From assembly GCA_045639725.1 (NCBI GenBank), contig JAZUDR010000328.1, positions 1-52,257 of the forward strand: a DNA stretch of 52,257 nucleotides, written 5' to 3'. Shown here one piece after another: positions 1-52,257 of the stretch. The notes below the pieces were generated by a model. The model had not been told where the DNA came from. It was given only the letters and a program-made list of their open reading frames with translations, and ran no database searches. Source of the DNA: Candidatus Avigastranaerophilus sp. (GTDB lineage Bacteria > Muiribacteriota > Ozemobacteria > Ozemobacterales > Ozemobacteraceae). Position 1 is the first letter of the stretch. Each line of letters opens with the position of its first letter. A program made the position numbers and the translations under genes.

Positions 1-244
1 GAGCTATGAGCTATAAGCTATAAGCTATAAGCTATAAGCTATAAGCTATAAGCTATAAGCTATAAGCTATAAGCTATGAGCTATAAGCTATAAGCTATAA
101 GCTATAAGCTATAAGCTATAAGCTATAAGCTATAAGCTACAAGCTATAAGCTATGAGCTATGAGCTATGAGCTATGAGCTATAAGCTATAAGCTATAAGC
201 TATAAGCTATTAAGCTTCCTGCTTCAGGCTTCAAGCTTCAAGCT
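1..244. repeat. Heptanucleotide tandem array A: (A/G)AGCTAT x30 followed by 5 reverse-orientation GCTTCNN-type units; truncated by window start
   Basis: Read directly. Units keep perfect 7-bp phase from 1 to 210. The unit is AAGCTAT, with GAGCTAT in units 1, 2, 12 and 23-26 and one AAGCTAC at 134..140. Positions 211..245 read TAAGCTT CCTGCTT CAGGCTT CAAGCTT CAAGCTT, the reverse complement of the GAAGCYN/GGAAGCA units at 35817..36075 and 49579..49611. The last unit ends on the first base of the stop codon (245..247) of the minus-strand ORF. Confidence 0.95.
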
Positions 245-715
245 TTATTCTTCTTCTGGTTTGGTCTTTATGCTGCCAAACAGTTCAGTGCATTTCTTTC
301 TTTGGGAAACAGTTAATTCAGGATACCATCGATACATCAGTTTGTTGGACATGAATTCTGCTGTAATAACAAAACCTTTTCTTGTCTCGATTGCGAACAT
401 GTCTGCGTCTTTCTTTGGTTTACTGAAAGCAAAACCGCGTTCTGCGCAGAATGATTGATAGAATTCACAACACTGCTGGAAGGTAGTCCCGACATTGATG
501 TCACATTCACCAAACAATTCTCTGTTGGCATCGGTCAGACGTTCAGAATATGGTGGCATAGGAAGCACAACATCTACGCCTTTCATATCATAAATCATGA
601 TATTGCCTTTTGCTCTGAAAGATACATATCCAAAATAGCCAAGGCCACAGCAAAGGATGAAAAGTATAAGTGTATTTAAGGCAGCTCCGCCTTTTTTGTT
701 AAAAAAACTATGCAT
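245..715 (-). CDS. Hypothetical membrane-anchored protein (156 aa)
   Basis: The ORF track gives 245..724, starting on GTG. I prefer ATG at 715 because GAGGTG lies 6 nt upstream on the minus strand. There is one N-terminal hydrophobic helix (LNTLILFILCCGLGYFGYV). No family recognised by eye. Confidence 0.55.
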   Translation of the reverse strand: MHSFFNKKGGAALNTLILFILCCGLGYFGYVSFRAKGNIMIYDMKGVDVVLPMPPYSERLTDANRELFGECDINVGTTFQQCCEFYQSFCAERGFAFSKPKKDADMFAIETRKGFVITAEFMSNKLMYRWYPELTVSQRKKCTELFGSIKTKPEEE

Positions 716-764
716 GAATATCACCTCACGTAAAATGTATTATAATATCCATAAAAAGCAAGCA

Positions 765-1919: not shown

Positions 1920-4760
1920 TCAATTCTCGCGTAGCGACAAAAGTTCATACAGTGGGAATGTACGGTTAGTGCGACCCTTGATTGCCAAGCGTTCAATGAA
2001 CTGCAGTTTTCCTGCGCCCTGTAAAAGTCTTATTGTGTATGGGCATATCAGAATGCCGGTATTCTGTGCTTTTACAGCCTGAACTTTCAGACGGGCTGCA
2101 AGGTTTACCGGGTTACCAATAACAGTGTAGTCTAATTTTCCGTTTCTTGAGCCTATTTTGCCAGAAACAGCGTCACCAGAAGCTATACCCATTACTAATC
2201 TGAAACCGGGTATCTGATTCTTTAGTTTGTTGTTGATAGCCAGAGCCGTTCTGCATGCATTAAGCGCAAGTCTGTCATTGCTGGTTGTTTTTCTGAAGAC
2301 TATCATTACTGTATCTTCAATCAGTTTGTCTATTTGGCCTTTATTATCTGTTGAAATCTCATCGATAGCGTCTACTAGTTTACCTATTACAGAGGTTATC
2401 GTTTCTGCGGGATACTGGCTTAATTCTTTTTCTCCTTTTAAAGCGCAGAATAGTATGCTGACAGGTATTCTTTCACCGCCTGGCTGTAATTGCATATCGC
2501 TATTTGAAATTTCATTAATGACATCTTGAGAAACATAGTTTGTCATTTTTTCCTTTTGAAGCAAAGCGTCAGTCATTTCGTTGAATGATTCACTCAGTGT
2601 TTCGAATTCATCACGTGATTTCCATTGGATTTTGTTTGTATAATCGCCTTGTCCGACCTTTTCGGCATTTTTTTTCAACTGCTTCAACGGTGTGATGATT
2701 ATGCCGCCAAGAAGCAATGATAAAGCCAATATAAGAAGAAGCGTATATATAAGTATTTTATTTATGTCTACGGAATTGTCGGAAAGTGCATTGCCAGAAA
2801 GCTCTGCAACATTAAATACTATACTGTTCACTTGGCTTATATAGGTTCCGGAAATAACAGTGTCGCCCATATCCCATGTATGATTGTTTTTGGATATTAC
2901 TAATTGATTTGCTTTTTCAATTACCATGTCTATAGGGAATCCGTTTGTCATAATTGTTTTGTCGAGACTTTGAAGCAAGCCATTTTCTGTTAATGGGAAA
3001 ATAGCAGTTTTTATAGAATATTTGCCCATGCGTTTTTCTGAAAATAGGCTGGCTGAGCGCTTTCTTAATACATGCAGCAGATTTTCTGCCTCGAATTTAA
3101 CTACTATGCTTCCTAAGGGTTTTGTTTCATTTGATGATCCTGTGAAAATAGGGAAGACAGAATATAGGGAATTGGGTTCTTCTGCGACTGATGAATAGAT
3201 TTTACCAATGTTTGATATTATCAGACCCATTCCTTCGGGCGAAAAATTCAGGCTTTTTTCCAGTTTATCATATGAATTTATCCTGGAAAAATCTATCTTA
3301 TCAAATGCTTTTTGAAGACCGAAATCTGCAAATCTTTTTACATCATGACTTAATGGGGAAAGAGTAGCATTGGGTTTATTGGTTATTAGATTTTCCTGAT
3401 TGGAATTGTAGCAATAGGAAATTAATTCAGCGTCACTGTCTGGCAACCATTCTTTAAGTTTTTGAACCAGTTCCTCTTCACTTAGATTTATAATACTGCT
3501 TCTAAGATCTGCAATTGATAATTCCTTGTTGCTGATAAATGCTTCTATAGCTTTTTCTATTACTTTCAACTGAATTTGGGTATACTGCTGTATTTCATTT
3601 TTGTTGTATTCCTGTGTATGGTAATAATTGTAATATGCTGCAAGTCCGAATGATGTGAAGGGTATAAGGACTGCTGCCGAAATACAGATTATGACTCTTG
3701 TAAGAATTCTGATATTGCCAGTATAACCAAAGAAAGAAATATTTATCAGCGCAAAGCTTGATAATAAAATCAATAATAATAATGGGAATTTTAAATTGTT
3801 GATTGTTTCTCTCATCGGGTGCTGCAATGATTTTGCAGGAATTGTAATTTTAATCTTTGGAGAGATGCTTTTGAATTTATCTACGTTGAACGGATAATAA
3901 GTATCTTGTGTTATGTAACGGATAACTAATTCTTCAGAAAGCATGCTATATATTGATAACCCATACGACGGATCAAATTCATATTTGTAATATGCTGATT
4001 CCTGCTGTTCTCCAGAAGATACTTCCAGGCTTTTTATATACAACTCATCTGCACTATCCTGATTTGCTGTTTTTATTATTTCTTTTATTGATATGTCCTT
4101 GTTTTTGACTAAGAATAACATATAGTTCTGTTTGTTATCTTTGGTCATAAAGGCTTTAAAATACCCTGTCATTTTTTGCAGTTTTGATTTCCCTGAAAGA
4201 ATAGGGGTTGCATGCTCAGGAATAATTGTTATTCCGCCAGCAGCCAATAAAAACTTTTGGAAATATGCATTATTTCGTTCTATGCTCTGAGAATCTGTTA
4301 TTTGTGAGACTATGCTCTTCATGTATCCTTTTATAGAGGTTTTGGAATACATTCCTAACTCAGATTTCAATTCAGGATAAATGTAAGCGTCTAGTTTTTC
4401 GTTCTCATCATTGAAATAAAACAATGCTGTAATATTTGATTTAAGATGGCGGCTCAGTGAATTCGCTAAGGTATCAGCTGTAAAAGCAGAAGAAGCATAT
4501 TCTGTATTTGGAAAACTTTTTAGCTTATGCTCAATATAATAATCTGTTGTCAGTTTTCTTTGATAATCGTTAATTTCATCAAATAATTGCATTTTGGCTT
4601 TTGATAAAATTCTTTTTTCACCTTCAGACAGAAATGCTTCTGAAACGGTATTCATTCCTAAGTAAGGCAGTATTATCAATAGCAGCCATATAGAAAATAA
4701 TAGAAACTTATTGGAAGTAAGCTTTGCTTGGATTTTAATTTGTTCCTGAATGTTATTCAA
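1920..4760 (-). CDS. Membrane sensor class III adenylate cyclase, HAMP domain, C2-like half-site (946 aa from TTG 4760)
   Basis: Four hydrophobic helices separate two ~300-aa extracytoplasmic segments. HAMP block: IITPLKQLKKNAEKVGQGDYTNKIQWKSRDEFETLSESFNEMTDAL. Cyclase core: VSILFCALKGEKEL (first metal Asp replaced by Ala), DKLIEDTVMIVF, DYTVIGNPVNLAARL (Thr/Asn/Arg retained). Start choice: AGGGAG lies 7 nt upstream of TTG 4760 and gives an 8-nt overlap with the upstream gene. The track start ATG 4835 would overlap by 83 nt. Confidence 0.8.
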   Translation of the reverse strand: MNNIQEQIKIQAKLTSNKFLLFSIWLLLIILPYLGMNTVSEAFLSEGEKRILSKAKMQLFDEINDYQRKLTTDYYIEHKLKSFPNTEYASSAFTADTLANSLSRHLKSNITALFYFNDENEKLDAYIYPELKSELGMYSKTSIKGYMKSIVSQITDSQSIERNNAYFQKFLLAAGGITIIPEHATPILSGKSKLQKMTGYFKAFMTKDNKQNYMLFLVKNKDISIKEIIKTANQDSADELYIKSLEVSSGEQQESAYYKYEFDPSYGLSIYSMLSEELVIRYITQDTYYPFNVDKFKSISPKIKITIPAKSLQHPMRETINNLKFPLLLLILLSSFALINISFFGYTGNIRILTRVIICISAAVLIPFTSFGLAAYYNYYHTQEYNKNEIQQYTQIQLKVIEKAIEAFISNKELSIADLRSSIINLSEEELVQKLKEWLPDSDAELISYCYNSNQENLITNKPNATLSPLSHDVKRFADFGLQKAFDKIDFSRINSYDKLEKSLNFSPEGMGLIISNIGKIYSSVAEEPNSLYSVFPIFTGSSNETKPLGSIVVKFEAENLLHVLRKRSASLFSEKRMGKYSIKTAIFPLTENGLLQSLDKTIMTNGFPIDMVIEKANQLVISKNNHTWDMGDTVISGTYISQVNSIVFNVAELSGNALSDNSVDINKILIYTLLLILALSLLLGGIIITPLKQLKKNAEKVGQGDYTNKIQWKSRDEFETLSESFNEMTDALLQKEKMTNYVSQDVINEISNSDMQLQPGGERIPVSILFCALKGEKELSQYPAETITSVIGKLVDAIDEISTDNKGQIDKLIEDTVMIVFRKTTSNDRLALNACRTALAINNKLKNQIPGFRLVMGIASGDAVSGKIGSRNGKLDYTVIGNPVNLAARLKVQAVKAQNTGILICPYTIRLLQGAGKLQFIERLAIKGRTNRTFPLYELLSLREN

Positions 4761-7700
4761 TGCTAAGCTCCCTATAAAAAACTTCCTGGTTATCTGCTGC
4801 TTCACAGACTTTAAGCTTGTCTGCAACACTTGCATAGGTGTTTTTATCTATGAAAATCTTGCTGGAAACAGCACTTTTGGTCTTTGTTTCCAAGGCTTCT
4901 GCTTCTTTAAGTATTGGGCCCATTAATAGAAACTCACGTCTTCTTGCTTTTTGGCCAGCGAAGCCTATCATGACACTACCGGTTGCAAGACCGATACCGT
5001 TTTCTATAGTAAATAATCCTTGTTTTGCACGTTCTTCATTGAATTGCTTAAGGCTTTCACGCATTTCCAGAGCAGCTTTACATGCATTTAATGCATGGTC
5101 AGGACTCTTTTCTTCGTAAAAGGCTGCTGATATGGCGTCACCAATTATTTTTTCTATTGAACCGCCATACTTGGTAATAGATTTTTCCATTAATGTAAAG
5201 TAATCATTCAATAAAGTTACAACTTCTTCTGGTTCGTTCTTTTCTGAAATAGTTGTGAAGCTTCTTATGTCAGAACTCAAAATAGTTACGTTTGCGCTTG
5301 TTATTGCATTGCCATCATGAGCCGCAAGACTGTTGTATAGCTTGTCGGAAACAAATCGTTTCAGTTTTTCGCGTTCGCAGAGTCCTTCAGCCATCTTATT
5401 AAATGAATCACTGAGTTCTTCCAGTTCATCGCCAGTTTCTATCTCAGTAATTGCATTGAAATGACCACGACCTATTTCTGTTACGAATTTAGTAAGAGCA
5501 TTTATCGGAGCCAGCAGAGCACTTGCTAGAAGATCTGACAGAAGTGCTACAGCTAATATTGCATATAATATCAGTAGCAATGCAAACAATCTGTTAGAGA
5601 AAAAGACAGAATTGTTATCCGGTATTATTGCTACAGCAGCAAAAAGCATTGCACTGTCTGGTATGTAATACCATTTTTTTATTACAGTACCATTTGTGGT
5701 ATGGCTTATCTCTGTATCAGAAGTCTTTTTTTCGACTGCCTTAGTAACTGCTTCTCTAAGATACTGATTATATGGATATGGGGCCTTCAATGGATATATT
5801 TCAGAATGTTCGACCTCTGTATGATTGAAAATGGCGTATTCGATGCAGGTGTTTCCTATTAGCTGTGATAAGAGTGACGGATGCTTTTCTATGACTGTTT
5901 TCCACAAAACCTTTCCAATTTCATAGATTCCTAAGGTCGATAATAGAACTGCATTAGCATTGTTCGGAGTTTGTGGATCTGACAATAGCATATATGAAAG
6001 CTTGTTGCTCAAGGATATGTTCTCACTGGGTATTATATAGCTTTCGCGCGCAAGAATATTTTTGCTGTTGTAAACCTTTGTATATGAGTCTGTATAGCTT
6101 GAAAGCAGCATATATTGCTCATTGTTCTTTTTGTTAAGTGGGCTGCTTTCATCAAGAATATGCATATCGCTCATCATTTTATACATATTAATGATTCTAG
6201 CTAATTTGGTTGAGAAACCATTATGGCTCTTAGAAAATTCCACCAAAAATCCTGATTTGTCTAATAGAAATGCATTTGCCATTGTTTCTGGCTTTTTTAT
6301 ACCTGGTATTACTTTATTTTCTTTTAAAGAACCAAAAAAGTAATCAGTCGTATTTTCATAATACATTTGAGCTATATAACGTTTGAATTCCAAGAACTCG
6401 GTATTGATGTCTATTGACAAATCATCCTTGAACTTATTGAAAAGTGCAAGTCTTTCATTCATCGCATTTTCTATACTGCTATTCTGGAGATTCTGTTCTT
6501 TTTCTGAAACTAGAATATAAATACACCATAAGCCGATAACCGGTATTACTACAGCAATTAAAACAATGGCTCTCACTTTGAGTGAAAGAAAAATCTGTGG
6601 ATTAACGAAATGAAAAACACTATTCAGAAAGATTATTCCCAGCAATGCTATGACAACATATGTAATGACATTACAGTATTTCAGATAGATGAGAAAACTG
6701 TTGTTTAAGTCGCTTTTTGCGATGGAAACAGATATTGCATTGTTGTCTATGAATTCTTTGTATTTCTGATATTCTTCTGGGTTAAAAAGCTTATGACTTT
6801 CTATGCAGTTAGAGAAATAAGAGGGAAAAGGAATCTTATAGGTTATTGTATCTTTGTTCAGTTCCCAGATTGGAAATTTTATTGATTCTTTAATAATACT
6901 TCTAGTTATGGGTAATTCATTGCTTTCAGCTTTGCTATTGGTTATACATTCTAAGAATTTTGAAATTTGAATATCAGAGCTTTTTATGCATACAAAATAT
7001 GTTCCGAGTATTTTTATCGTATTATTGCCTTCTCTTAAGATTAAGGGGCAATAATACTGATAAATATTCTGATTGCCATGATTGCAGGAAAATGAACTAA
7101 AACAAGTCTTAGGGTAGTTTAAATCTGAATTAAACAGGGTTAAGTATTTGGCACACTCAAACATAAATGCGTTGGAACGCGAACCTCTTATAAAATACTG
7201 GCTATTAATACTATTTAGTTTTTGGTTCAAATATTGCCAGTTTGATTTAAGCACAGGTAACACGGTTACAGATCTTGGCAGATACAAGTAATTCCTACCT
7301 AAGAATGCATTTATAAAATTGTTTTTATCAATGTCGTTTTTGAAAATATGGCTCGGATCATCTATTGCAATATCTGTAAAATCGTAATTACTACTAATAA
7401 ATAAAAATGGTTCTATGCCATATTTCTCTTTTATAAAGCGCTTAGATTTTTCTATGAAATCTGATTTTATATAATCCGGCTCAGATTCCTCTGTAAAAGT
7501 GAATTTGAAATTGCGATTTTCTAAGTCGGGAAATTTAAGATATGTCTCAAGATCATTAAAAGCTTTTTTTACATATGATTCAGGCTTTAAATCATCCCGG
7601 AAATTATTCATTTCCCTGAGAAGACGTTCTTTTACCAGTTCTTCATTTATTGAGGACTGGCGTTCAGCAAGCCTATTGAAATAATCTCTTAAATATAATA

Positions 7701-7773
7701 GCGGAATAACTGATAAAATAAAAACAAAAAAGATTCCCAAAGTTTTTGAGAATCCTTTTTGTGTAATTTGCAT
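4753..7773 (-). CDS. Membrane sensor class III adenylate cyclase, HAMP domain, C1-like half-site (1006 aa)
   Basis: Same 4-TM / two-loop topology as the downstream paralogue. HAMP block: LAPINALTKFVTEIGRGHFNAITEIETGDELEELSDSFNKMAEGL. Cyclase core: VTILSSDIRSFTTISE and EKIIGDAISAAF (both metal Asp present), but REFLLMGPILKEAEALE sits where xxYDxxGDxVNxAxRxE is expected, so Asn becomes Lys and Arg becomes Ala. Confidence 0.85.
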   Translation of the reverse strand: MQITQKGFSKTLGIFFVFILSVIPLLYLRDYFNRLAERQSSINEELVKERLLREMNNFRDDLKPESYVKKAFNDLETYLKFPDLENRNFKFTFTEESEPDYIKSDFIEKSKRFIKEKYGIEPFLFISSNYDFTDIAIDDPSHIFKNDIDKNNFINAFLGRNYLYLPRSVTVLPVLKSNWQYLNQKLNSINSQYFIRGSRSNAFMFECAKYLTLFNSDLNYPKTCFSSFSCNHGNQNIYQYYCPLILREGNNTIKILGTYFVCIKSSDIQISKFLECITNSKAESNELPITRSIIKESIKFPIWELNKDTITYKIPFPSYFSNCIESHKLFNPEEYQKYKEFIDNNAISVSIAKSDLNNSFLIYLKYCNVITYVVIALLGIIFLNSVFHFVNPQIFLSLKVRAIVLIAVVIPVIGLWCIYILVSEKEQNLQNSSIENAMNERLALFNKFKDDLSIDINTEFLEFKRYIAQMYYENTTDYFFGSLKENKVIPGIKKPETMANAFLLDKSGFLVEFSKSHNGFSTKLARIINMYKMMSDMHILDESSPLNKKNNEQYMLLSSYTDSYTKVYNSKNILARESYIIPSENISLSNKLSYMLLSDPQTPNNANAVLLSTLGIYEIGKVLWKTVIEKHPSLLSQLIGNTCIEYAIFNHTEVEHSEIYPLKAPYPYNQYLREAVTKAVEKKTSDTEISHTTNGTVIKKWYYIPDSAMLFAAVAIIPDNNSVFFSNRLFALLLILYAILAVALLSDLLASALLAPINALTKFVTEIGRGHFNAITEIETGDELEELSDSFNKMAEGLCEREKLKRFVSDKLYNSLAAHDGNAITSANVTILSSDIRSFTTISEKNEPEEVVTLLNDYFTLMEKSITKYGGSIEKIIGDAISAAFYEEKSPDHALNACKAALEMRESLKQFNEERAKQGLFTIENGIGLATGSVMIGFAGQKARRREFLLMGPILKEAEALETKTKSAVSSKIFIDKNTYASVADKLKVCEAADNQEVFYRELSIE

Positions 7774-7788
7774 TTGATTGTAAATGGC

Positions 7789-8577
7789 TTATTTCTTAGG
7801 TCTTACGTATTTCTTCATGAAACCGTTAAGATTAGAGAAGATACCCATAAGGATATTCACTTCACGCGCAGTTGGAGAAGAACGATGGAAGAATGCTCTT
7901 AAAACCTGGAATAAGTCATCCGGATTTACTAATGGCAGAAATTCGCACATGCTCAGAACACGGGTCATGTGGGCATATAACTTAGCAAGCTCATCAGTAG
8001 TTGCCGGCTGTTCCAATGGATCGTCAGCCTGAGCTTTCTTTAATGGAACTGGATTACCGAACTTCTGGAATAATTCATAAGCTATCAGTAATACAGCCTG
8101 AGAAAGGTTGAGAGAAGTGCACGCAGTATCTGTTACTACTCTCATGCAACCCATGCAGTGCTGTAGATCATCCTTGGTGAGACCCCATTCTTCGCGGCCG
8201 AACAGGATAGAAACCGGTCCCTGTGAAAGAACCTTTTCTATTCTTTCCAGACCTTCTTGGACTGTATAATTCGGTTCATGATATTCGCCACGTCTGTTAG
8301 CGGTTCCTAATACCAATACGCTTCCCTGAATTGCTTCGGGTATGGTCTGGAACACTTTTGCATTGTTCAGCAGTTCCTGTGAGTGCATTGCCATTTTTAT
8401 TGCATCACTGTCTATTTCACAACCAGGTCTTACAAGACAAAGATTATGAAGACCAAAATTGTTCATTGCACGACAGGTAGAACCGATATTAAGTGGTCCC
8501 TGTGGTTCTACTAAAACAATACGTATATTATCCAACAGCAGATTCTGCTGTGGTTCTGGAAAATTTCTATCAGTCAC
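7789..8577 (-). CDS. trmJ: SpoU/TrmH-family tRNA (cytidine/uridine-2'-O)-methyltransferase, TrmJ-like
   Basis: The N-terminus IRIVLVEPQGPLNIGSTCRAMNNFGLHNLCLVRP closely parallels the TrmJ N-terminal motif. The SPOUT C-terminal block LNLSQAVLLIAYEL is present. GTG start with GGAG 7 nt upstream. Confidence 0.8.
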   Translation of the reverse strand: MTDRNFPEPQQNLLLDNIRIVLVEPQGPLNIGSTCRAMNNFGLHNLCLVRPGCEIDSDAIKMAMHSQELLNNAKVFQTIPEAIQGSVLVLGTANRRGEYHEPNYTVQEGLERIEKVLSQGPVSILFGREEWGLTKDDLQHCMGCMRVVTDTACTSLNLSQAVLLIAYELFQKFGNPVPLKKAQADDPLEQPATTDELAKLYAHMTRVLSMCEFLPLVNPDDLFQVLRAFFHRSSPTAREVNILMGIFSNLNGFMKKYVRPKK

Positions 8578-8607
8578 TTTTTAACTCCAAAAAATGGGTA
8601 TAAAAAA

Positions 8608-8681
8608 TAGGCCCGCTCGGATTCGAACCGAGGACCCCCACCATGTCACGGTGGTGCTCTAACCAACTGAGCCACGAGCCT
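8608..8681 (-). tRNA. tRNA-Val (anticodon GAC), 74 nt, no encoded CCA
   Basis: Folded by hand on the minus strand. Acceptor AGGCTCG/CGGGCCT (one G-U pair), D arm GCTC-AGTTGGTTA-GAGC, anticodon arm CCACC-GTGACAT-GGTGG (U33, GAC, A37), variable loop GGGTC, T arm CTCGG-TTCGAAT-CCGAG, discriminator A. Confidence 0.9.
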
Positions 8682-8774
8682 TTGAACAAATGCTATGATA
8701 TCATCTCACACCTACTATGTCAATACCCTTTTTTATATATTATAGACTGTTGGCTTTTATATTTGAGGGTTTTG

Positions 8775-8783
8775 TGTTAAAAT
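8775..8783 (+). promoter_or_regulatory. Extended -10 promoter candidate (TGTTAAAAT) for the apbE operon
   Basis: TGn+TAAAAT lies 29 nt upstream of ATG 8812. GGAAGAGG Shine-Dalgarno sequence lies in between. No good -35 box. Confidence 0.4.
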
Positions 8784-8811
8784 CAGCCTACTAATTGGAA
8801 GAGGCATTATT

Positions 8812-9975
8812 ATGGACGACGAAAAAAAAGTTAACACAACTGAAGTAAACGCTGAAGAAAAGGTTCAGGCTGAAAATACTCAACAAAAGCCAGAGCAAGC
8901 CCCCAGGAATCCAGCTGATATAGAGCTGACTCCTGAAGAAATCAAGAAAAACCTTAAGAAGCGTTTGGTAAGTTCTAGTATTCTTATACTTCTGCTTATT
9001 CTTGTGAGCTCTTTTTTCTACGTTCATGGTGATACTATGTATTTTGAAGATACTCGTTTCCTGATGAATACTGCCTATACGATAAAAACTTATGGAATAA
9101 AAGGTTTTCTTGGAATGCAGGCCGCTTTCAAGAAAATACACCAGGTTGAAAATCTTACTTCCTTTTATCAGCAGGGTTCAGGGCTTTCTAGTTTAAATAA
9201 AACCGGTTCTTATGTTTATGACTTCAATAATAAGCAAAAACGTGACCTGCTCCGTGAAATTGCCATGGGAGCCAAGTTTATGTATGAAAACACCGATGGT
9301 TATTTTGACCCAAGCTTTGCTGCCCTTCATGAAATTTATGGTTTCCATACCCCTGATAAAATAGGAAGACTTCCAGATGATACAGAATTGGCAAACACTA
9401 TGCTCAAGTGTGGCTATAACCATGTTTTACATATAGAAGGTGATAAACTGACTTTGAATTCCGGTTCAATGATTGACTTTGGCGGTATTGTTGGCGGGTA
9501 TTCCATAATGTGCGCCAGAGCAATTCTTCAGGCATCTGGTTGTAAGGCATTCCTAATTGACGACGCCGGTGATATCTGGTTCGAAGGCGAAAAGCCGGAT
9601 AAATCACCTTGGAAAATTGCAGTTAAAGACCCGCGTGGTGGCTCAAGCCTTGCGATGATTGTTTCCAAAACACCTCTGGCAATTTCTACATCTGGTAGCT
9701 ACGAACGCTACGTAACAGTGAATGGCAAAAAATATGGACACATTATGGACCCAAAGACCGGTAAGCCGGCAGATTATTACGATTCTGTTACAGTTGTTTC
9801 TTTGGACCCAATCCAGAGCGACGTATTGAGCACAGCTTTATTTGCCATGCCACCGGAAAAAGCTTATAAATATGCCGAAGACAAAAATGTTGCAGCGTTA
9901 TTTCTTGATACAAAAGGTGAAATTACTGTAAGCACCAAAGGTAAGCTGTATTTTTCTGATATAAAAGTAAAATGA
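8812..9975 (+). CDS. apbE: FAD:protein FMN transferase (ApbE/Ftp family) with N-terminal charged segment and TM anchor
   Basis: ApbE-type blocks DFGGIVGGYS, AISTSGSYERY and HIMDPKTGKP. N-terminal helix SSILILLLILVSSFFYV. Confidence 0.85.
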   Translation: MDDEKKVNTTEVNAEEKVQAENTQQKPEQAPRNPADIELTPEEIKKNLKKRLVSSSILILLLILVSSFFYVHGDTMYFEDTRFLMNTAYTIKTYGIKGFLGMQAAFKKIHQVENLTSFYQQGSGLSSLNKTGSYVYDFNNKQKRDLLREIAMGAKFMYENTDGYFDPSFAALHEIYGFHTPDKIGRLPDDTELANTMLKCGYNHVLHIEGDKLTLNSGSMIDFGGIVGGYSIMCARAILQASGCKAFLIDDAGDIWFEGEKPDKSPWKIAVKDPRGGSSLAMIVSKTPLAISTSGSYERYVTVNGKKYGHIMDPKTGKPADYYDSVTVVSLDPIQSDVLSTALFAMPPEKAYKYAEDKNVAALFLDTKGEITVSTKGKLYFSDIKVK

Positions 9976-11490: not shown

Positions 11491-11966
11491 AGATAGCTGT
11501 CTATCCAGGAAGCTTTGATCCATTTACCAATGGCCATCTTGATATTCTGAAGCGTGCTGCTTCATTGTTTGATCATGTAATTGTAGGTGTTCTTGTTAAT
11601 CAGAGCAAGAACTGCCTTTTCTCTCCGGAAGAACGTGTTGATTTGATTCACGAAGTAACTAAAGATATTGAAAACGTCAGAGTTATTCATTTCAATGGAT
11701 TGCTGGTTAATTTTTGTAAAAAGGTTGGGGCAAACGCTGTTATAAGAGGTCTTAGAGCCGTTTCTGACTATGAATATGAAGTTCAGTTGTTTGCGGCCAA
11801 TTATCATTTGGAACCAACTGTTGAAACTGTTTTCTTGATGTCTCAGCCAAAGTATTCGTTCCTGAGCTCAAGTGTAGTAAAGGAAATAGCATATTATAAC
11901 GGTGATATTGAGGATATGGTATCACCTGTTATTGCAGAAGCGATTAAAAACAAAATGAAGAAGTAA
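11487..11966 (+). CDS. coaD: Phosphopantetheine adenylyltransferase
   Basis: AVYPGSFDPFTNGHLDIL, RGLRAVSDYEYE and SSSVVKE motifs. ATGA overlap with maf. Confidence 0.95.
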   Translation: MKIAVYPGSFDPFTNGHLDILKRAASLFDHVIVGVLVNQSKNCLFSPEERVDLIHEVTKDIENVRVIHFNGLLVNFCKKVGANAVIRGLRAVSDYEYEVQLFAANYHLEPTVETVFLMSQPKYSFLSSSVVKEIAYYNGDIEDMVSPVIAEAIKNKMKK

Positions 11967-12001
11967 AAAAAGACCCGCTCAACTGAGCGGGCCTTTTTTT
12001 T
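11965..12001. terminator. Bidirectional rho-independent terminator between coaD (+) and nifS (-)
   Basis: Stem CCCGCTC (11974..11980) pairs with GAGCGGG (11985..11991). It is flanked by an A-run upstream and a T-run downstream, so it can work on both strands. Confidence 0.85.
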
Positions 12002-26887: not shown

Positions 26888-26899
26888 TTTGTTTAAAAA

Positions 26900-26927
26900 C
26901 ACCTCTATAATAAAGAGGTGTTTTTTT
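26900..26927 (+). terminator. Rho-independent terminator
   Basis: Stem CACCTCT (26900..26906) pairs with AGAGGTG (26914..26920), followed by T7. Confidence 0.85.
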
Positions 26928-33650: not shown

Positions 33651-35825
33651 GTGAATAATGACAGTATAACAGTAACTATTGAACGTATAACCTTTGCAAA
33701 TGAGCAGAACGGCTACCACGTATTAAAAGCCTCCGGGCGCGATTATCCGAATGGTGTAACGCTAGTCGGTAATTTTTGCATGATTCAGCCCGGTGAAGAA
33801 ATAAAGGCTTATGGGACCTGGGCCTGTCACCCGACCTTTGGCATGCAATACCAGACCTCACATTATACTGTTCTTAAGCCCGCAACCTTGAAGGGAATAG
33901 AAAAATTTCTCGGCTCCGGTCTGATAAAAGGCATTGGGCCTGTAACAGCAAAAAGGCTTGTAAAAACCTTCGGCATTGATACGCTTGAAATTATAGAAAA
34001 CCATCCTGAAAAACTGGCTGAATGTCCAGGCATCGGTCCAAACAAAGCAGACAAGATATCTCAGGGGTTCTTTTTGCATCGTTCAATTCAGGATATAATG
34101 GTCTTTCTGCAAGGCCATGGAATTTCAACAGCTTATGCCGCAAGGATATTTAAAAGGTATGATAAGGAAGCCATAAAAAAGGTTTCGGAGAATCCGTATA
34201 TTCTTGCTGATGAAATACCTGGTATTGGTTTCAAGAAGGCAGACGACATTGCTGCCGAATTCGGTATTATTGGAAATGACCAGCGCCGTGTTACTGCAGG
34301 TATATTCTATACACTGAACTCTGTAAATAAAGACGGGCATCTCTTTTTGACAAGTGATGAGCTTTTTAAACTGTCTGGTGAGACATTGGGAATAACAGAC
34401 GAGAATCTGGTTGCCAATGCATTGAATTCACTGGTGACTTCAAAAAAGATTATTTTAAGAGAGTATGATGACCGAAAACTTTATTATCTACCAAACAATT
34501 TTTACTCTGAAGCTAAGAGCGCCTTTTTTGTAAAACGTCTTGCTTCATGTGCTAGAAATATTCCGAGAGATCAACTGACTGCAGTCTTAGACCAGGCTAT
34601 GGAGGCTCATGGCTTAAAATTGAGTGATATCCAGCAATTTGCCGTAGAAACTTCACTTACAAAGGGACTTGTTATTATTACTGGCGGCCCTGGAACTGGT
34701 AAGACAACTACCTTGAAGGCAGTTGTAATGGCTCACAAGGCCATGGGGCATAAGGTTCTTCTTGCTAGTCCTACAGGAAGAGCCGCTAAGAGATTGACAG
34801 AGGTTTCTGGTTTTGAGGCATCTACTATACATAGATTATTGAAGTATGACCATCAGATCCATGGCTTTAAGCATAACCATGAAAGCCCGTTAGATTGTGA
34901 TGTTCTCGTTATAGACGAAGCATCAATGGTAGATATGAGCTTGTTCTATTCTGTTGTTCAAGCCGTTCCTCAAAGAGCTTCACTAGTGCTTGTGGGTGAT
35001 GTTGACCAGCTTCCATCTGTTGGGGCAGGGCTTGTTCTTAATGAACTTATACGTTCTGGCATTGTGCCTACGGTCGTATTGAATACCATTTTCAGACAGG
35101 CAGAAACATCTGATATAATAAAGAATGCTCACCTTATCAATAAAGGGCAGATGCCTGTTCTTACAGTTCCTGACGGGAGAGCAAAGACAGATTGCTATTT
35201 TATTAGTGCAGACCCGGTTGATAAGGTAATCGATTTGTTAAAGAATGTCGTAGCAAAGAGTTTGCCGAAGAAATTCGGTTATGTTCCTATCAGAGATATT
35301 CAAGTGCTGACTCCAATGAATAGAGGTCCACTAGGCGCTGTTGCTCTGAATTCCGTGCTGCAGGGAATACTTAATCCGCCATCTCCTGAACGCGCTGAAA
35401 TTCAGCATGCTGGCCGAGTGCTCAGGGTGGGGGACAAGGTTATTCAATTAAGGAACAATTATGACCTTGATGTATTCAATGGTGATATTGGGGTTATTAC
35501 CGAAATAGACCCTGAAGAGCAGGAAGTTACTATCGATTTCCCTCAGGGGACGGTAGCTTTTCAGAGTGCTGATTTTGTAGATCTTGCTCATGCTTATGCT
35601 GTAACTATACATAAGTCACAGGGAAGCGAGTATCCTGCGGTTGTTATGATTGCGCACACCCAGCATTATATGATGCTTCAGCGCAACCTTGTATATACGG
35701 GTCTTACCAGAGCAAAGAAGACAATGGTTTTTCTAGGTACACAGAAGGCTATTAGTATAGCTGTGAACAACAATAAGATAAAAGCTCGCAATACTATTCT
35801 GGCTGAGCTGCTGAAGGAAGCTTGA
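33651..35825 (+). CDS. recD2: RecD2-type SF1B ATP-dependent DNA helicase
   Basis: ITGGPGTGKTTT (Walker A), VLVIDEASMVD (Walker B), LVGDVDQLPSVGAG, TIHKSQGSEYPAV and LVYTGLTRAK motifs. GTG start. The stop TGA (35823..35825) is built from the first units of array B. Confidence 0.9.
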   Translation: MNNDSITVTIERITFANEQNGYHVLKASGRDYPNGVTLVGNFCMIQPGEEIKAYGTWACHPTFGMQYQTSHYTVLKPATLKGIEKFLGSGLIKGIGPVTAKRLVKTFGIDTLEIIENHPEKLAECPGIGPNKADKISQGFFLHRSIQDIMVFLQGHGISTAYAARIFKRYDKEAIKKVSENPYILADEIPGIGFKKADDIAAEFGIIGNDQRRVTAGIFYTLNSVNKDGHLFLTSDELFKLSGETLGITDENLVANALNSLVTSKKIILREYDDRKLYYLPNNFYSEAKSAFFVKRLASCARNIPRDQLTAVLDQAMEAHGLKLSDIQQFAVETSLTKGLVIITGGPGTGKTTTLKAVVMAHKAMGHKVLLASPTGRAAKRLTEVSGFEASTIHRLLKYDHQIHGFKHNHESPLDCDVLVIDEASMVDMSLFYSVVQAVPQRASLVLVGDVDQLPSVGAGLVLNELIRSGIVPTVVLNTIFRQAETSDIIKNAHLINKGQMPVLTVPDGRAKTDCYFISADPVDKVIDLLKNVVAKSLPKKFGYVPIRDIQVLTPMNRGPLGAVALNSVLQGILNPPSPERAEIQHAGRVLRVGDKVIQLRNNYDLDVFNGDIGVITEIDPEEQEVTIDFPQGTVAFQSADFVDLAHAYAVTIHKSQGSEYPAVVMIAHTQHYMMLQRNLVYTGLTRAKKTMVFLGTQKAISIAVNNNKIKARNTILAELLKEA

Positions 35826-36075
35826 AGCTTGAAGCCTGAAGCCTGAAGCTCGAAGCCTGAAGCTTGAAGCTTGAAGCCTCAAGCTCGAAGCTTGAAGCTG
35901 GAAGCTGGAAGCTGGAAGCCTGAAGCTTGAAGCTGGAAGCTTGAAGCTCGAAGCTGGAAGCCGGAAGCCTGAAGCTTGAAGCTTGAAGCTCGAAGCTGGA
36001 AGCCTGAAGCTTGAAGCTGGAAGCTTGAAGCTGGAAGCTGGAAGCTGGAAGCCTGAAGCTTGAAGCTCGAAGCCA
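35817..36075. repeat. Heptanucleotide tandem array B: GAAGC(T/C)N x37
   Basis: Counted unit by unit. There are 37 units in unbroken 7-bp phase. GAAGC is invariant except for one CAAGC. The last two positions vary (TT, CT, TC, TG, CG, CA). Degenerate units extend to 35810 and 36103. An identical 42-bp (6-unit) block occurs at 35887..35928 and 36020..36061. Confidence 0.95.
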
Positions 36076-36165
36076 AAAGCTAATGGCCAAAAGCGAAGTG
36101 CAACGAACTTTGACATCTACTTGTAAAATATATCAAGTTTTTTTGAAAAAAATTTTGAGCCCCCC

Positions 36166-36194
36166 TTGACGGTTTAGTATTTTATCAGTAAAAT
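36166..36194 (+). promoter_or_regulatory. Sigma70-type promoter candidate (TTGACG-17-TAAAAT)
   Basis: TTGACG at 36166..36171, 17-nt spacer, TAAAAT at 36189..36194. Lies upstream of the Gly-zipper protein gene. Confidence 0.5.
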
Positions 36195-36276
36195 TAAATT
36201 AACAATGGTAAGGGTACACAAACCCATGACCCAAATTATAAGTTTAAATAAGTTTCATACTTGGGGGTATTATAAG

Positions 36277-37164
36277 ATGAAAAGGGCAAAAGTTTTACTC
36301 TGCATGGTTCTTTCACTTCTCATGCTCGTAGACTACACTGTTTTCCAGCCTGCTCCAGCATTCGGTTCTATTAAGGAAAAGGTTCAGTCACTTGATAAGA
36401 AGAGTCTTCTTATTGGTGGCGCTGTAGGCGTTGCTGCTGGCGCTGGTATCGCACTTGCTGCTCCAGCTATTGGTGGCGCTGTTGCTAGTGCTGGTGGAAT
36501 TGCTGGCGTTGGTTCAGCAATCGTTGGTGGCGTTGCTGCTATCGGCGGCGGTGTTCTTGGTGCTGTATCTGCATTCGCAGGTGCTATAGGTTCAGCTCTC
36601 GGTGCCGTAGGTGGCTTCATTGCTGGTATCTTCACTAGCCCACTCTTTATACCTGCATTAGTTGTTGTAGGTGCTTGTGTTGCTGGTTACTTCATCTACA
36701 AGAAATACAAAGAAAAGAAAGCAAAATCTGGCGCAGACGCTGCAGTTCTTCCAGAATCTGAAACTCTCACCATCACACCAGGTGACTATCAGATGTCTAG
36801 CGTAATCCCAGCCGGCGAAGAAGAACCAATCAATGTTGGTGCTGGTTGCGAAATCATCACAATTGGTACTGCTGATTCTGTAACAGTATCTGATGATATT
36901 CCAGTTGCTGCTAGTCCAGAAACTGCTTCAACAAAACTCAGCGCTGCTGAAGAAGCTGATGCTTCTGGTGCTGTTACTACTACTGAAAGCAGATCTCTCA
37001 AAGCTGCTCATGATCGCTATATCGAAGCTTATCAGAGATATACTAACCTCGTAACTAACAGCGGTGGAGCTAACAGTAACGACGTTCAGGCTGCTCTTGA
37101 AGAATACAGAGAAGCTTATAACGAATATGAAACCCTTCGTGCTACTGGCGCTGTAAACAAGTAA
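36277..37164 (+). CDS. Secreted/membrane glycine-zipper protein (295 aa)
   Basis: Signal peptide MKRAKVLLCMVLSLLMLV. About 100 aa is almost entirely G/A/V/I with repeated GxxxG/AxxxG. A TM helix is followed by KKYKEKKAK, then an acidic Ser/Thr/Ala-rich tail. GGGGG Shine-Dalgarno sequence before ATG 36277. Confidence 0.6.
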   Translation: MKRAKVLLCMVLSLLMLVDYTVFQPAPAFGSIKEKVQSLDKKSLLIGGAVGVAAGAGIALAAPAIGGAVASAGGIAGVGSAIVGGVAAIGGGVLGAVSAFAGAIGSALGAVGGFIAGIFTSPLFIPALVVVGACVAGYFIYKKYKEKKAKSGADAAVLPESETLTITPGDYQMSSVIPAGEEEPINVGAGCEIITIGTADSVTVSDDIPVAASPETASTKLSAAEEADASGAVTTTESRSLKAAHDRYIEAYQRYTNLVTNSGGANSNDVQAALEEYREAYNEYETLRATGAVNK

Positions 37165-37195
37165 CATACCCATAAACTTATAAAGTATGAAAAAT

Positions 37196-37223
37196 GCCAC
37201 TCGTAAGAGTGGCATTTTTTTTT
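37196..37223 (+). terminator. Rho-independent terminator
   Basis: Stem GCCACTC (37196..37202) pairs with GAGTGGC (37207..37213), followed by A then T9. Confidence 0.85.
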
Positions 37224-39878: not shown

Positions 39879-39924
39879 ATTGATTAGATTTTGCGTTGTT
39901 ATCGGATATTGGCGCTATTTCCTA

Positions 39925-39959
39925 ATTGAAAATTGAGAATTGAGGATTGAGAATTATTG
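39925..39959. repeat. Short heptanucleotide array ATTGA(A/G)(A/G) x5
   Basis: ATTGAAA ATTGAGA ATTGAGG ATTGAGA ATTATTG in 7-bp phase. Lies between the convergent stops of the ankyrin gene (39878) and rsmD (39970). Confidence 0.6.
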
Positions 39960-45274: not shown

Positions 45275-46366
45275 ATGGCAGACGAAAAAAGCTTATATAG
45301 ATTATTAAAACTTACATTTGACCAGAACGCATCAGACTTGCATCTGAAGGTCGGTAAAATTGCGTGTATCCGCGTCGACGGGCATATTACACCTGTTGAA
45401 GGTTATAAGTTCAGTAAAAATGATTTCGAAAAAATCATCGAAGCTTTGCTGAATCCTGAACAGGAAGCGCAGTTCCGCAAAAATCATGAGCTTGACTTTG
45501 CTTACACCCTTGAAGGTGTTTGCCGCTTCAGAGTAAATCTTTATACTGATTTAAACGGTCCGGGTGCTGTGTTCAGAGTTATTCCATACCGTGTTATGGA
45601 TTTTGATGAGATAGGGTTGCCCAATGCTGCCCGAAGGCTGATTGAGCAGCCAAATGGTCTGATTCTCATTACCGGCCCCACAGGCGCTGGCAAGACTTCG
45701 ACTCTGGCAAGCTATTTGAGTTACGTAAATCAGAATGCAAAGCGTCACATTGTGACTCTTGAAGACCCGATTGAATACCAGTTTGAAGATCAGTTGTCTT
45801 TTTTCAATCAGCGCCAGGTTGGTGTTGACTGCAGAAGTTTCTATGAAGGTCTTTTAACAGTATTGCGACAGGACCCAGACATTGTTGTCGTAGGTGAAAT
45901 GCGTGACCCGGAAACGATTTCATTGACTCTAAATGCTGCAGAAACTGGGAAACTTGTTATCGCAACTTTGCATACCAATTCCGCTGTTGCAACTGCTGAA
46001 CGTATTGTTAATGTTTTCCCGGAAGACAGACACAATCAGATTCTTTTGCAGCTTTCTATGGTATTGCGCGGCGTTGTTTCCCAGACTTTGCTCAGAAGAA
46101 CAAATGGCGGTCGTGTTGCTGCTTTTGAACTTCTGTTGAATACTTCTGGGGTAAGAAGCCTTATAGCCGAAGGTAAGATCCACATGCTTCCATCTTATCT
46201 TGAAACAGGTGGCGAAACTGGTATGATGACAATGGAAATGTCATTGGCCCAGCTTGTAAAGGATAAGATAGTTACTCCTGAAGAAGCTTTTGCTTCCGCT
46301 CCGAATCCAAATGCTTTGCGTAAGCTTTTAATGCCAAAGCCAATGCAGAGTCAGGTTCAGGGTTAA
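45275..46366 (+). CDS. pilT: Type IV pilus retraction ATPase PilT (copy 1, canonical motifs)
   Basis: ASDLHL N-terminal block, GPTGAGKTST (Walker A), TLEDPIEY (Asp box), DPDIVVVGEMRD (Walker B plus catalytic Glu), ATLHTNSA (His box), GVRSLIAEGK. Confidence 0.9.
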   Translation: MADEKSLYRLLKLTFDQNASDLHLKVGKIACIRVDGHITPVEGYKFSKNDFEKIIEALLNPEQEAQFRKNHELDFAYTLEGVCRFRVNLYTDLNGPGAVFRVIPYRVMDFDEIGLPNAARRLIEQPNGLILITGPTGAGKTSTLASYLSYVNQNAKRHIVTLEDPIEYQFEDQLSFFNQRQVGVDCRSFYEGLLTVLRQDPDIVVVGEMRDPETISLTLNAAETGKLVIATLHTNSAVATAERIVNVFPEDRHNQILLQLSMVLRGVVSQTLLRRTNGGRVAAFELLLNTSGVRSLIAEGKIHMLPSYLETGGETGMMTMEMSLAQLVKDKIVTPEEAFASAPNPNALRKLLMPKPMQSQVQG

Positions 46367-49576: not shown

Positions 49577-49578
49577 TT

Positions 49579-49611
49579 GGAAGCAGGAAGCTGGAGAGCA
49601 GGAAGCAGGAC
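49579..49611. repeat. Short heptanucleotide block GGAAGCN x~5
   Basis: GGAAGCA GGAAGCT GGAGAGCA GGAAGCA GGAC. Starts 3 nt after the stop at 49576. Confidence 0.6.
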
Positions 49612-49650
49612 ATTATTATATACGAAGCAAGTATAATGTTTGTTGCAATA

Positions 49651-49685
49651 GGCTATTGGCTCTTAGCTTTTGGCTGTTGGCCGAG
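49651..49685. repeat. Short heptanucleotide block GGCTNTT x5 (opposite orientation to the AGC-core units)
   Basis: GGCTATT GGCTCTT AGCTTTT GGCTGTT GGCCGAG in 7-bp phase. A third short block, GGAAGCA GGAGAGC TTAGAGC, lies at 49701..49721. Confidence 0.55.
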
Positions 49686-49759
49686 AACAAGCAGGCCGAC
49701 GGAAGCAGGAGAGCTTAGAGCTTATTTATGAAAAATTACTAATGAAGAAAGGGTTTTTG

Positions 49760-51858: not shown

Positions 51859-51860
51859 AA

Positions 51861-52042
51861 TAAAGCTCTAAGCTATAAGCCTAAAGCTTGCAGCTTAAAG
51901 CTTAAAGCCTAAAGCCTAAAGCCTAAAGCTTAAAGCCTAAAGCATAGAGCCTAAAGCTTAAAGCTTAGAGCCTAAAGCTTATAGCTTATAGCTTATAGCC
52001 TAGAGCTTAGAGCTTAGAGCTTATAGCTTATAGCTTATAGCT
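51861..52042. repeat. Heptanucleotide tandem array D: T(A/G/C)NAGC(T/C/A) x26
   Basis: Counted unit by unit. There are 26 units in unbroken phase (TAAAGCT, TAAAGCC, TAGAGCC/T, TATAGCT/C, one each of CTAAGCT, ATAAGCC, TGCAGCT and TAAAGCA). The array begins 3 nt after the pilT-4 stop. Its last base is the first base of the recN-like stop codon complement. Confidence 0.95.
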
Positions 52043-52248
52043 TAATTAGTAAGTAACGAACGGGCGAAGGTTAAGCCGTCTTTATCTGTTCGGCCAAGCA
52101 TTCTTGCGATTTCTTCGACACGTTCATCGCCTTCGACACGGTTAATATGAACTTCGGTCTGGTCACCGTTAACAGTTTTGGTAACAGTGAAATGATGAGT
52201 TCCTTCTTTGGCAATCTGGTGAAGATGAGTTACCAATAAAACCTGTTT
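52042..52248 (-). CDS. recN: RecN C-terminal fragment (68 codons), bounded upstream by an in-frame TAA 9 nt from the window edge
   Basis: KQVLLVTHLHQIAKEGTHHFTVTK ... ERVEEIARMLGRTD ... ARSLL matches the RecN C-terminal QV(L/I)xVTHLPQ(V/I)A ... E(I/L)ARMLGG region. The frame contains TAA at 52249..52251 (minus strand), so the gene may be disrupted. See findings. Confidence 0.6.
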   Translation of the reverse strand, partial: KQVLLVTHLHQIAKEGTHHFTVTKTVNGDQTEVHINRVEGDERVEEIARMLGRTDKDGLTFARSLLTN

Positions 52249-52257
52249 TTAAGTCGG

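Follow-up and report, generated by a model that had tools for sequence, protein, structure and literature searches.

The 52,257-nt contig JAZUDR010000328.1 (assembly GCA_045639725.1), analysed here over its whole length as the window, carries recD2, the gene for a superfamily 1B (SF1B) helicase, whose end passes into a tandem array of heptanucleotides that we call array B. The array is followed by degenerate units and a spacer, a promoter-like site and the leader of the next gene, and further heptamer arrays (A, C, D and E) lie elsewhere in the window (Table 1).

Table 1. Features of the recD2 locus, the other arrays of the window and sites of module M2 (window positions unless another contig is named)
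Feature	Position	Strand	Remarks
recD2, SF1B helicase, 724 aa	33651..35825	+	Pfam AAA_19, AAA_30, HHH_RecD2, SH3_13, OB_YrrC, UvrD_C_2
Array B	35817..36075	+	37 GAAGCYN heptamers in phase
48-bp internal duplication, copy 1	35887..35934	+	exact match to copy 2
48-bp internal duplication, copy 2	36020..36067	+	exact match to copy 1
127-aa open reading frame through array B	35733..36116	-	mechanical, judged spurious
Degenerate units AAAGCTA, ATGGCCA, AAAGCGA, AGTGCAA, then spacer	36076..36165	+	
Promoter-like TTGACG-17-TAAAAT	36166..36194	+	for the downstream gene; 90-91 bp past array B
Leader of ~77 nt, then downstream gene	36195..37164	+	ATG at 36278; no Pfam match
Array A	1..245	-	cut by window start; on the sense strand of gene 245-724(-): stop, (GAAGCYT) x ~5, (YATAGCT) x ~30
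Array C	39914..39959	+	(AATTGAG) x 4.6, between convergent genes
Mosaic D	49577..49725	+	(GAAGCNG) x 4, linker L1 (...AAGTATAATGTTTGTTGCAATA), (GGCTNTT) x 4, GGCCGAGA..., (AGAGCTT) x 2
Array E	51859..52047	+	27 units of the TAAAGCT/TAGAGCT/TATAGCT family
M2-bearing site	L005 12195-12400		
M2-bearing site	L007 3310-3570		
M2-bearing site	L144 11555-11640		
M2-bearing site	L147 2850-2930		

An unbroken heptamer array begins at the end of recD2

Cut from 35817, array B comprises 37 heptamers over 259 bp without a break in phase, as an earlier sequence-only reading of this DNA had described, including the variants at positions 6 and 7 of the unit (TT, TG, CT, TC, CG or CA). The most frequent units are GAAGCTT (12), GAAGCTG (10), GAAGCCT (8) and GAAGCTC (4), with one each of CAAGCTC, GAAGCCG and GAAGCCA. 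Tandem Repeats Finder places a period-7 repeat at 35817-36073 (36.7 copies, score 332), the three-unit pattern GAAGCYNGAAGCYNGAAGC matches 33 times in the window and 0 times in 100 shuffles, and a lag scan of the window finds tandem arrays at lag 7 only, at five loci, the exception being a short period-12 stretch at 45756-45795. A 42-bp block at 35887-35928 had been reported to recur at 36020-36061; the two copies are indeed exact, but the extent needs correcting, as the match runs on to 48 bp, the longest exact repeat internal to the array.

The gene ends GAA GCT TGA, its last two codons and stop forming units 1 and 2 of the array, again as first read. RecD2 homologues terminate 0-3 aa past a conserved ...LLK motif, and therefore array B did not truncate the protein; it starts exactly at the native C-terminus, where the codons (CTG AAG GA.) are already unit-like. 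Array B is non-coding. It follows the recD2 stop and holds 7, 5 and 7 stop codons in the three plus-strand frames, which explains why genes running into such an array end within its first units. The minus strand has 0, 0 and 1, and we regard the open reading frame (ORF) on that strand as spurious, since it would change frame wherever copy number differs by anything but a multiple of three units. A clustered regularly interspaced short palindromic repeats (CRISPR) array, with repeats of 23-50 nt and unique spacers, is excluded, since the 7-nt units are contiguous and have no spacers.

Array B varies between strains with identical neighbours

From the order of unit variants, the sequence-only reading had suggested growth by multi-unit slippage or unequal exchange and had proposed comparing copy number and order between strains. 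This comparison yields wide variation, from 2 to ~39 units at array B, and agrees with the suggestion. Across strains and lineages the site holds 2, 6, 8, 9, at least 13, 37 and ~39 proximal units, and both copy number and unit order differ between strains whose flanking proteins are identical. In short-read contigs with a ~100% identical RecD2, an array of 2-8 units leads into GAAGCAGGGCATTATTCAATAC, where the contig stops. In contigs L005 and L007 (RecD2 94% identical) the array is split by a mosaic insert of 190-260 bp into a proximal stretch of 6 or 9 units and a distal stretch that is longer (22 units in L007), and this insert is present or absent among strains with identical RecD2. Contig L010 (RecD2 93%) has an unbroken array of ~39 units with its own 82-bp internal repeat. 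The array is lacking in L011 (83%, same gene order), where recD2 ends ...NVNASS* and the same promoter follows ~55 nt on; no period-7 array was found in the 22-kb L011 locus.

Changes by whole units are visible at array E, which in four strains with an identical upstream protein has 27, 23, 29 and 15 units (189, 161, 203 and 105 bp). All these lengths are exact multiples of 7, and the first six units and the last are kept while the interior is reshuffled. Growth by several units at a time is also backed by duplications, namely the 48 bp of the window, the 82 bp of L010 and a 98-bp module described below.

The window and the L010/L005 lineage generally share 77-87% DNA identity, with 83% in recD2 and 58% at its third positions. 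A tract of 1.45 kb, from ~35740 to ~37200, is 91-100% identical to that lineage; it holds the last 77 nt of recD2 (100%), array B, the spacer, the promoter and the next gene, and it ends near a bidirectional terminator at 37190-37219. From these identities, the tract suggests an import by recombination between lineages, as a single case.

Other arrays of the window

Array A is cut by the edge of the contig. Its full form, in L143, comprises 61 YATAGCT units followed by a canonical bidirectional terminator, which would lie just beyond the left edge of the window, and in L144 and L147 the same site has two GAAGCTT units only, together with a structured module, M2. The short-read contig SRR21150884_7407 from Logan (36,372 nt) reaches exactly from array A to array B. 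Array C is a shrunken version of a 680-bp mosaic in L010: the spacer between the convergent Ank and rsmD genes measures 17 nt in L011, 92 nt in the window and 680 nt in L010, where inverted (ATAATKC)n arrays adjoin both stop codons. Array E occupies the entire gap between two convergent stop codons. Further heptamer arrays occur in L010 and L031, among them a 53-unit AGCTATA array between divergent genes of L031, so an exclusive location at gene 3' ends is not supported. Beyond array E, the final 7 nt of the window (52251-52257) read AAGTCGG, compared with GCTGACC in three other assemblies, and place a stop in a recN-like gene; we read them as a contig-end artefact because they differ from those assemblies and interrupt the gene.

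The units correspond to the most abundant words of the DNA around them. In the part of the window outside the arrays no hexamer is more frequent than AAGCTT (80 occurrences, 4.8x the expectation from base composition, spread over all three codon phases) and no heptamer more frequent than AAAGCTT, and seeding of arrays by slippage should therefore be easy. A link to restriction-modification through avoidance of AGCT or AAGCTT was rejected, the observed/expected ratios outside the arrays being 0.95 and 1.06. Also rejected was a 6-nt palindrome plus one nucleotide as a general rule for the units: it fits GAAGCTT, TAAAGCT and ATAATGC, not AGCTATA, GGCTWTT or AATTGAG.

Arrays share units and linkers

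The arrays belong to mosaics with common linkers. GAAGCYN units occur at A, B and D and TATAGCT units at A and E, while L031 has the reverse-complement family AGCTATA; the families seen are GAAGCYN, AGCTATA, TAAAGCY, GGCTWTT, AATTGAG and ATAATKC. A linker of the form AAGTATAA(1-3 nt)ATGTTTCAATA lies directly 5' of arrays with differing units at at least four loci, including arrays of GGCTWTT units and the 53-unit array of L031. A second module, (GGCTNTT)n-GGCCGAGA, is found at at least five loci, among which L010 7883 is a strain-specific insertion. Mosaic D is a homologue of the sequence that interrupts array B in other strains, and its 98-bp core (14 x 7) consists of linker L1, (RGCTNTT) x 4 and GGCCGAGAACAAGCAGGCCGA; this core is tandemly doubled in L136 and L137 (8700-8870) and single in the window (49600-49700). 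As a candidate promoter, linker L1 contains a good -10 box (TATAAT or TATAAA) with no conserved -35, and it was not picked up in the promoter scan. Given these shared unit families and linkers, local slippage alone is insufficient, and some dispersal, by recombination or transposition, is needed.

Module M2 (~80 nt; TCGCCCCTGCGAGGCCTTCCTCCTT.AGGGGGAAGGTGGCA....GAAGC....ACGAATGAGGGG) folds as a three-way junction and is present in two unrelated places, the insert splitting array B (L005, L007) and the array A site (L144, L147). One of its hairpins differs between copies by two compensatory base-pair changes (CAGTGC/GCACTG versus CACAGC/GCTGTG), and the L007 copy has an extra nested hairpin insertion of ~60 nt. 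M2 has no copy in the window and no match in Rfam. A hammerhead ribozyme was rejected, the CUGANGA-like string not being conserved between copies and Rfam giving no match. In Rfam searches of the window, L005 and L007 at gathering scores, and of the array, the insert and M2 at permissive E-values, only tRNA-Val scored above threshold; the matches below it were miRNA-like and caused by the palindromic repeats. Some module joins rest on short-read contigs that are possibly chimeric across repeats. In one such contig (L141 2179-2420) array E leads into a CTAACGTGTTAG hairpin, linker L1 and a different downstream gene, owing either to a genuine rearrangement at the array or to chimeric assembly of the repeat.

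Transcript ends

The sequence-only reading had proposed that each operon end of the window carries a terminator or an array and in no case the two together, and that arrays could stand in for terminators. Canonical terminators are present elsewhere in the window (e.g. 11965-12000, 26895-26925, 37190-37219), and no terminator-like site was found at 35826-36204, after recD2 with its array. However, the rule breaks down at array A, which has a terminator in L143, and at several gene ends of the window that have neither. Nor was a terminator found after recD2 in L011, which is array-free, so that there is nothing for an array to have replaced. We discarded terminator substitution on these grounds and because array B, as RNA, has no unique fold and no U-tract. 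Its predicted fold is more stable than that of shuffles (-120.9 versus -106.6 kcal/mol, z = -3.0), but without a preferred register: the minimum-energy structure has a frequency of 0.0007, the centroid is unpaired, and there is no dominant hairpin of the kind that defines an intrinsic terminator.

Distribution and known heptamer repeats

Heptamer arrays with an AGCY core extend well beyond this organism. We scanned one genome per species for (AGCYNNN) x 6 and metagenomes for (GAAGCYN) x 6, and both scans are evidence of wide distribution, not of frequencies. Period-7 arrays with the AGCY core were found at at least 120 genome loci in many phyla, the matches listed including Acidobacteriota, Streptomyces, Halomonas, Moorena, Nitrospira and many others, and GAAGCYN arrays in at least 120 unrelated metagenome contigs, with a G+C content of 0.16-0.73 among the matches listed.

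The closest named relatives of the RecD2 and RecG of the window belong, with graded identity, to Candidatus Riflebacteria/Rifleibacteriota, and the host is therefore not a cyanobacterium. This bears on the short tandemly repeated repetitive (STRR) heptamers of heterocystous cyanobacteria, reportedly described by Mazel et al. in 1990 (cited in PMC4692102), with which the sequence-only reading had compared the arrays while seeing nothing else cyanobacterial. The kinship stands, in a non-cyanobacterial host: both consist of tandem heptamers scattered through intergenic DNA, each genome having several unit families (here five period-7 loci in 52 kb), although the units, which for STRR are CCCCAGT, TTGGTCA and CAACAGT, differ. 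The repetitive extragenic palindromic (REP) elements of enterobacteria, which make up bacterial interspersed mosaic elements (BIMEs), are imperfect palindromes of ~35 nt, tied to REP-associated tyrosine transposases (RAYTs). They resemble the arrays as strain-variable intergenic mosaics of units and conserved linkers at gene 3' ends with potential mRNA hairpins; unlike them, REP sequences are not tandem 7-mers, and no RAYT was found in ~75 kb of this species.

Closer likenesses are found among repeats with a period of 7. In many prokaryotes heptamers outnumber every other kind of long simple sequence repeat (LSSR), and polymerase slippage has been proposed for them (Mrazek et al., 2007, as cited in PMC4679880). 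As summarised there, heptamer LSSRs are, like array B, head-to-tail 7-nt units in runs well beyond chance length, intergenic, scattered across phyla and with period 7 favoured, whereas our arrays add new units (GAAGCYN and other AGCY-core families), a host among the Riflebacteria, shared linkers and mosaics. The GGGNATC/GGGGAYT repeats of Xanthomonas and Nostoc overlap stop codons or lie within 50 bp of them on the coding strand, form inverted pairs, are rare between divergent genes and are not conserved at orthologous genes of sister species (Rehm et al., 2015, PMC4692102). The present arrays share the adjacency to stop codons, the inverted pairs and the absence from orthologous genes of close relatives. 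However, those repeats are G-rich and form quadruplexes, which GAAGCYN cannot, as no unit of array B has a run of three or more G; it has the AAGCTT palindrome instead. The TAACTGA repeats of Beggiatoaceae, cyanobacteria and Bacteroidetes are sporadic over phyla and differ between strains by increments of 7 nt, contigs end in them, and close relatives have shorter, repeat-free intergenic regions (MacGregor, 2015, PMC4679880). All of this, and the intergenic position, recalls our arrays. In BOGUAY, the best-studied Beggiatoaceae genome, TAACTGA occurs mostly in 2-6 copies just upstream of start codons, though arrays reach 43 copies in some Bacteroidetes and cyanobacteria (PMC4679880), whereas the long array B sets in at a stop codon.

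Other observations

The TTGACG promoter that had been placed about 90 bp past array B is there (Table 1). Promoter and leader (36166-36277) are nearly invariant over three lineages whose coding DNA differs by 17-25%, and a coding explanation is excluded because of one-nt indels; 36195-36277 is, as judged from this conservation, a putative leader RNA, with no match in Rfam. The contigs L010, L031 and L143 belong to the metagenome-assembled genome GCA_045599645.1 (JAZRWI01), a sister lineage labelled Candidatus Avigastranaerophilus (Melainabacteria). This label is probably wrong, as its RecD2 and RecG group with Riflebacteria. Outside the arrays of the window GATC and GTAC are strongly under-represented (observed/expected 0.38 and 0.34), which suggests restriction systems aimed at those sites. 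A strain-variable spot adjoins tRNA-Val (8608-8681; region 8577-8812), between the SpoU methylase and ApbE genes: it holds a RelB/ParE toxin-antitoxin pair in L150 and L151, a DUF3990 gene pair in L143 and nothing extra in the window. Two tandem genes with HAMP and guanylate/adenylate-cyclase domains (1920-7773) lie where the G+C content of the window is lowest (0.32-0.36) and are the most divergent between lineages (73-84% DNA identity).

Discussion

Array B is best placed among the heptanucleotide repeats already known from bacteria, like STRR, GGGNATC and TAACTGA; new here are the host phylum, the unit families and the embedding of the arrays in a mosaic repeat system. We think it probable that array B is a hypervariable heptanucleotide tandem repeat, in other words a long simple sequence repeat (SSR) with a variable number of tandem repeats (VNTR), which changes by slippage and unequal recombination. 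It would be one of a family of heptamer arrays, mostly of AGCY core, that occupy intergenic DNA of this Riflebacteria lineage along with short conserved linkers. The properties of this class are all found: tandem 7-mers beyond chance, a non-coding site, copy-number polymorphism and, at array E, steps of unit size. By replication slippage and unequal recombination the array would expand, contract and be reshuffled, whether 7 bp or several units at a time, and other modules of the mosaics would split it, or be lost again, through recombination between flanking arrays. It may persist because, with stops in all three plus-strand frames and the downstream promoter left untouched, it would cost the cell little. 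Most likely array B is neutral or selfish DNA rather than a dedicated terminator or switch; in practice it would act as a hot spot for indels and recombination and as a long, loosely self-pairing 3' untranslated region (UTR). The recombination hot spot had been suggested by the sequence-only reading and finds indirect support in the modules gained or lost inside arrays and in the contigs that break there.

Several observations weigh against this reading. Array B has been retained across lineages 17% apart in recD2 DNA, although its position inside the import-like tract tempers the argument. The shared units and linkers imply dispersal and not only local slippage. Furthermore, four of the five arrays of the window begin inside a stop codon or 0-2 nt away (arrays A, D and E sit 0-2 nt from one), and arrays next to stop codons are also seen in unrelated contigs. 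Among the metagenome matches listed, a sense ORF of at least 100 aa ends between -3 and +20 nt of the array start in 19 of 98 cases (19%, versus 4.4% at random), and an antisense ORF ends at the opposite array boundary in 12 of 99. This excess could indicate function or targeting rather than mere tolerance.

In a rival reading, array B would be a module of an actively mobile mosaic element, of the type of miniature inverted-repeat transposable elements (MITEs), REP doublets forming hairpins (REPINs) or BIMEs, that inserts in or beside stop codons and brings along or seeds heptamer arrays, with slippage as a secondary process. The common linker before arrays of different units, the recurrent (GGCTNTT)n module with its strain-specific insertion, M2 at two unrelated loci with compensatory changes, the insert in array B that varies among strains with identical RecD2, and the adjacency of arrays to stop codons all speak for it. 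However, ~75 kb of this species yielded neither terminal inverted repeats nor target-site duplications nor a transposase; the modules recur at several loci, and no consistent ends or duplications were seen. The combinations of modules differ at each locus, as expected from recombination between arrays, the loss of the insert is simply explained by recombination between two flanking direct arrays, and some of the joins come from those possibly chimeric short-read contigs. We therefore regard such an element as unlikely, while taking it seriously. It is harder still to argue that array B is a functional RNA element of the recD2 3' UTR, whose AAGCUU hairpins would stop or slow transcription or block 3' exonucleases in the manner of REP. 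Such a role would fit the GAAGCTT unit, self-complementary at 6 of 7 positions, the stability of the fold, the lack of an intrinsic terminator between recD2 and the next promoter, and the similar heptamer repeats of Xanthomonas and Nostoc, which are mostly transcribed. Yet the RNA has neither a unique structure nor a U-tract, the array-free relative has no terminator for an array to replace, array A adjoins a canonical one, self-complementarity is lacking in other unit families of the genome, a divergent promoter region also holds an array, and a copy number of 2 to 39 speaks against a tuned element. We consider this role quite improbable.

The remaining alternatives fare worse. As a regulatory or protein-binding repeat, array B would tune the downstream promoter through its copy number in the style of phase variation. 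It does lie 91 bp upstream of a conserved promoter, and heptamer repeats near promoters affect the action of LexA and NtcA in Nostoc reporter assays. However, the repeats of SSR contingency loci lie within an ORF or a promoter, and array B, after a stop and 91 bp upstream of the -35 box, is neither within an ORF nor between the -35 and -10 boxes. Arrays of unrelated units occupy every kind of intergenic context, and the TTGACG-17-TAAAAT site is kept even in array-free L011. In addition, array and promoter stand 90 bp apart in every array-bearing strain at any copy number (36076-36165 is ~85-92% identical across their lineages and not alignable in L011), and therefore copy number only shifts recD2 away, leaving the immediate context of the promoter unaltered. 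The idea that copy number could change that context is not upheld, and promoter tuning is very unlikely; the terminator and promoter-context ideas of the sequence-only reading are both disfavoured. That array B or its length is an assembly artefact is scarcely credible. Short-read Logan contigs often end within arrays A and B, and the window itself begins inside array A. However, contigs from different samples read across the array, namely the window, L010 and, with the split form, L005 and L007, and because these independent assemblies span it we do not take it for an artefact. Nor does its longest internal exact repeat (48 bp) reach the assembly k of 141 that the k141_ names of L005 and L007 indicate, and the flanks are collinear.

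We thus return to a hypervariable heptanucleotide repeat as the reading of array B. Heptanucleotide arrays have been known in bacteria since 1990 and are the commonest long simple repeats in many genomes; the present locus extends them to a new host phylum and enlarges the set of unit families. A novel type of terminator finds no support in the evidence. Three facts appear useful: strains with identical flanking genes vary widely in copy number and inserted modules, the units correspond to the most abundant oligomers of the genome as counted in the window, and the arrays belong to mosaics with common linkers. The arrays also account for the breaks that short-read assemblies of this organism show at these points, and they would suit strain typing. 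It is conceivable, if rather doubtful, that the arrays, the linkers (L1 and the GGCCGAGA module) and M2 constitute an undescribed family of mosaic elements of Riflebacteria that spreads between loci and lineages, favours stop codons and perhaps acts at mRNA 3' ends. Were this so, the Riflebacteria lineage, rich in natural copy-number variants, would be a usable system for asking what role heptamer repeats play and why their period is 7.

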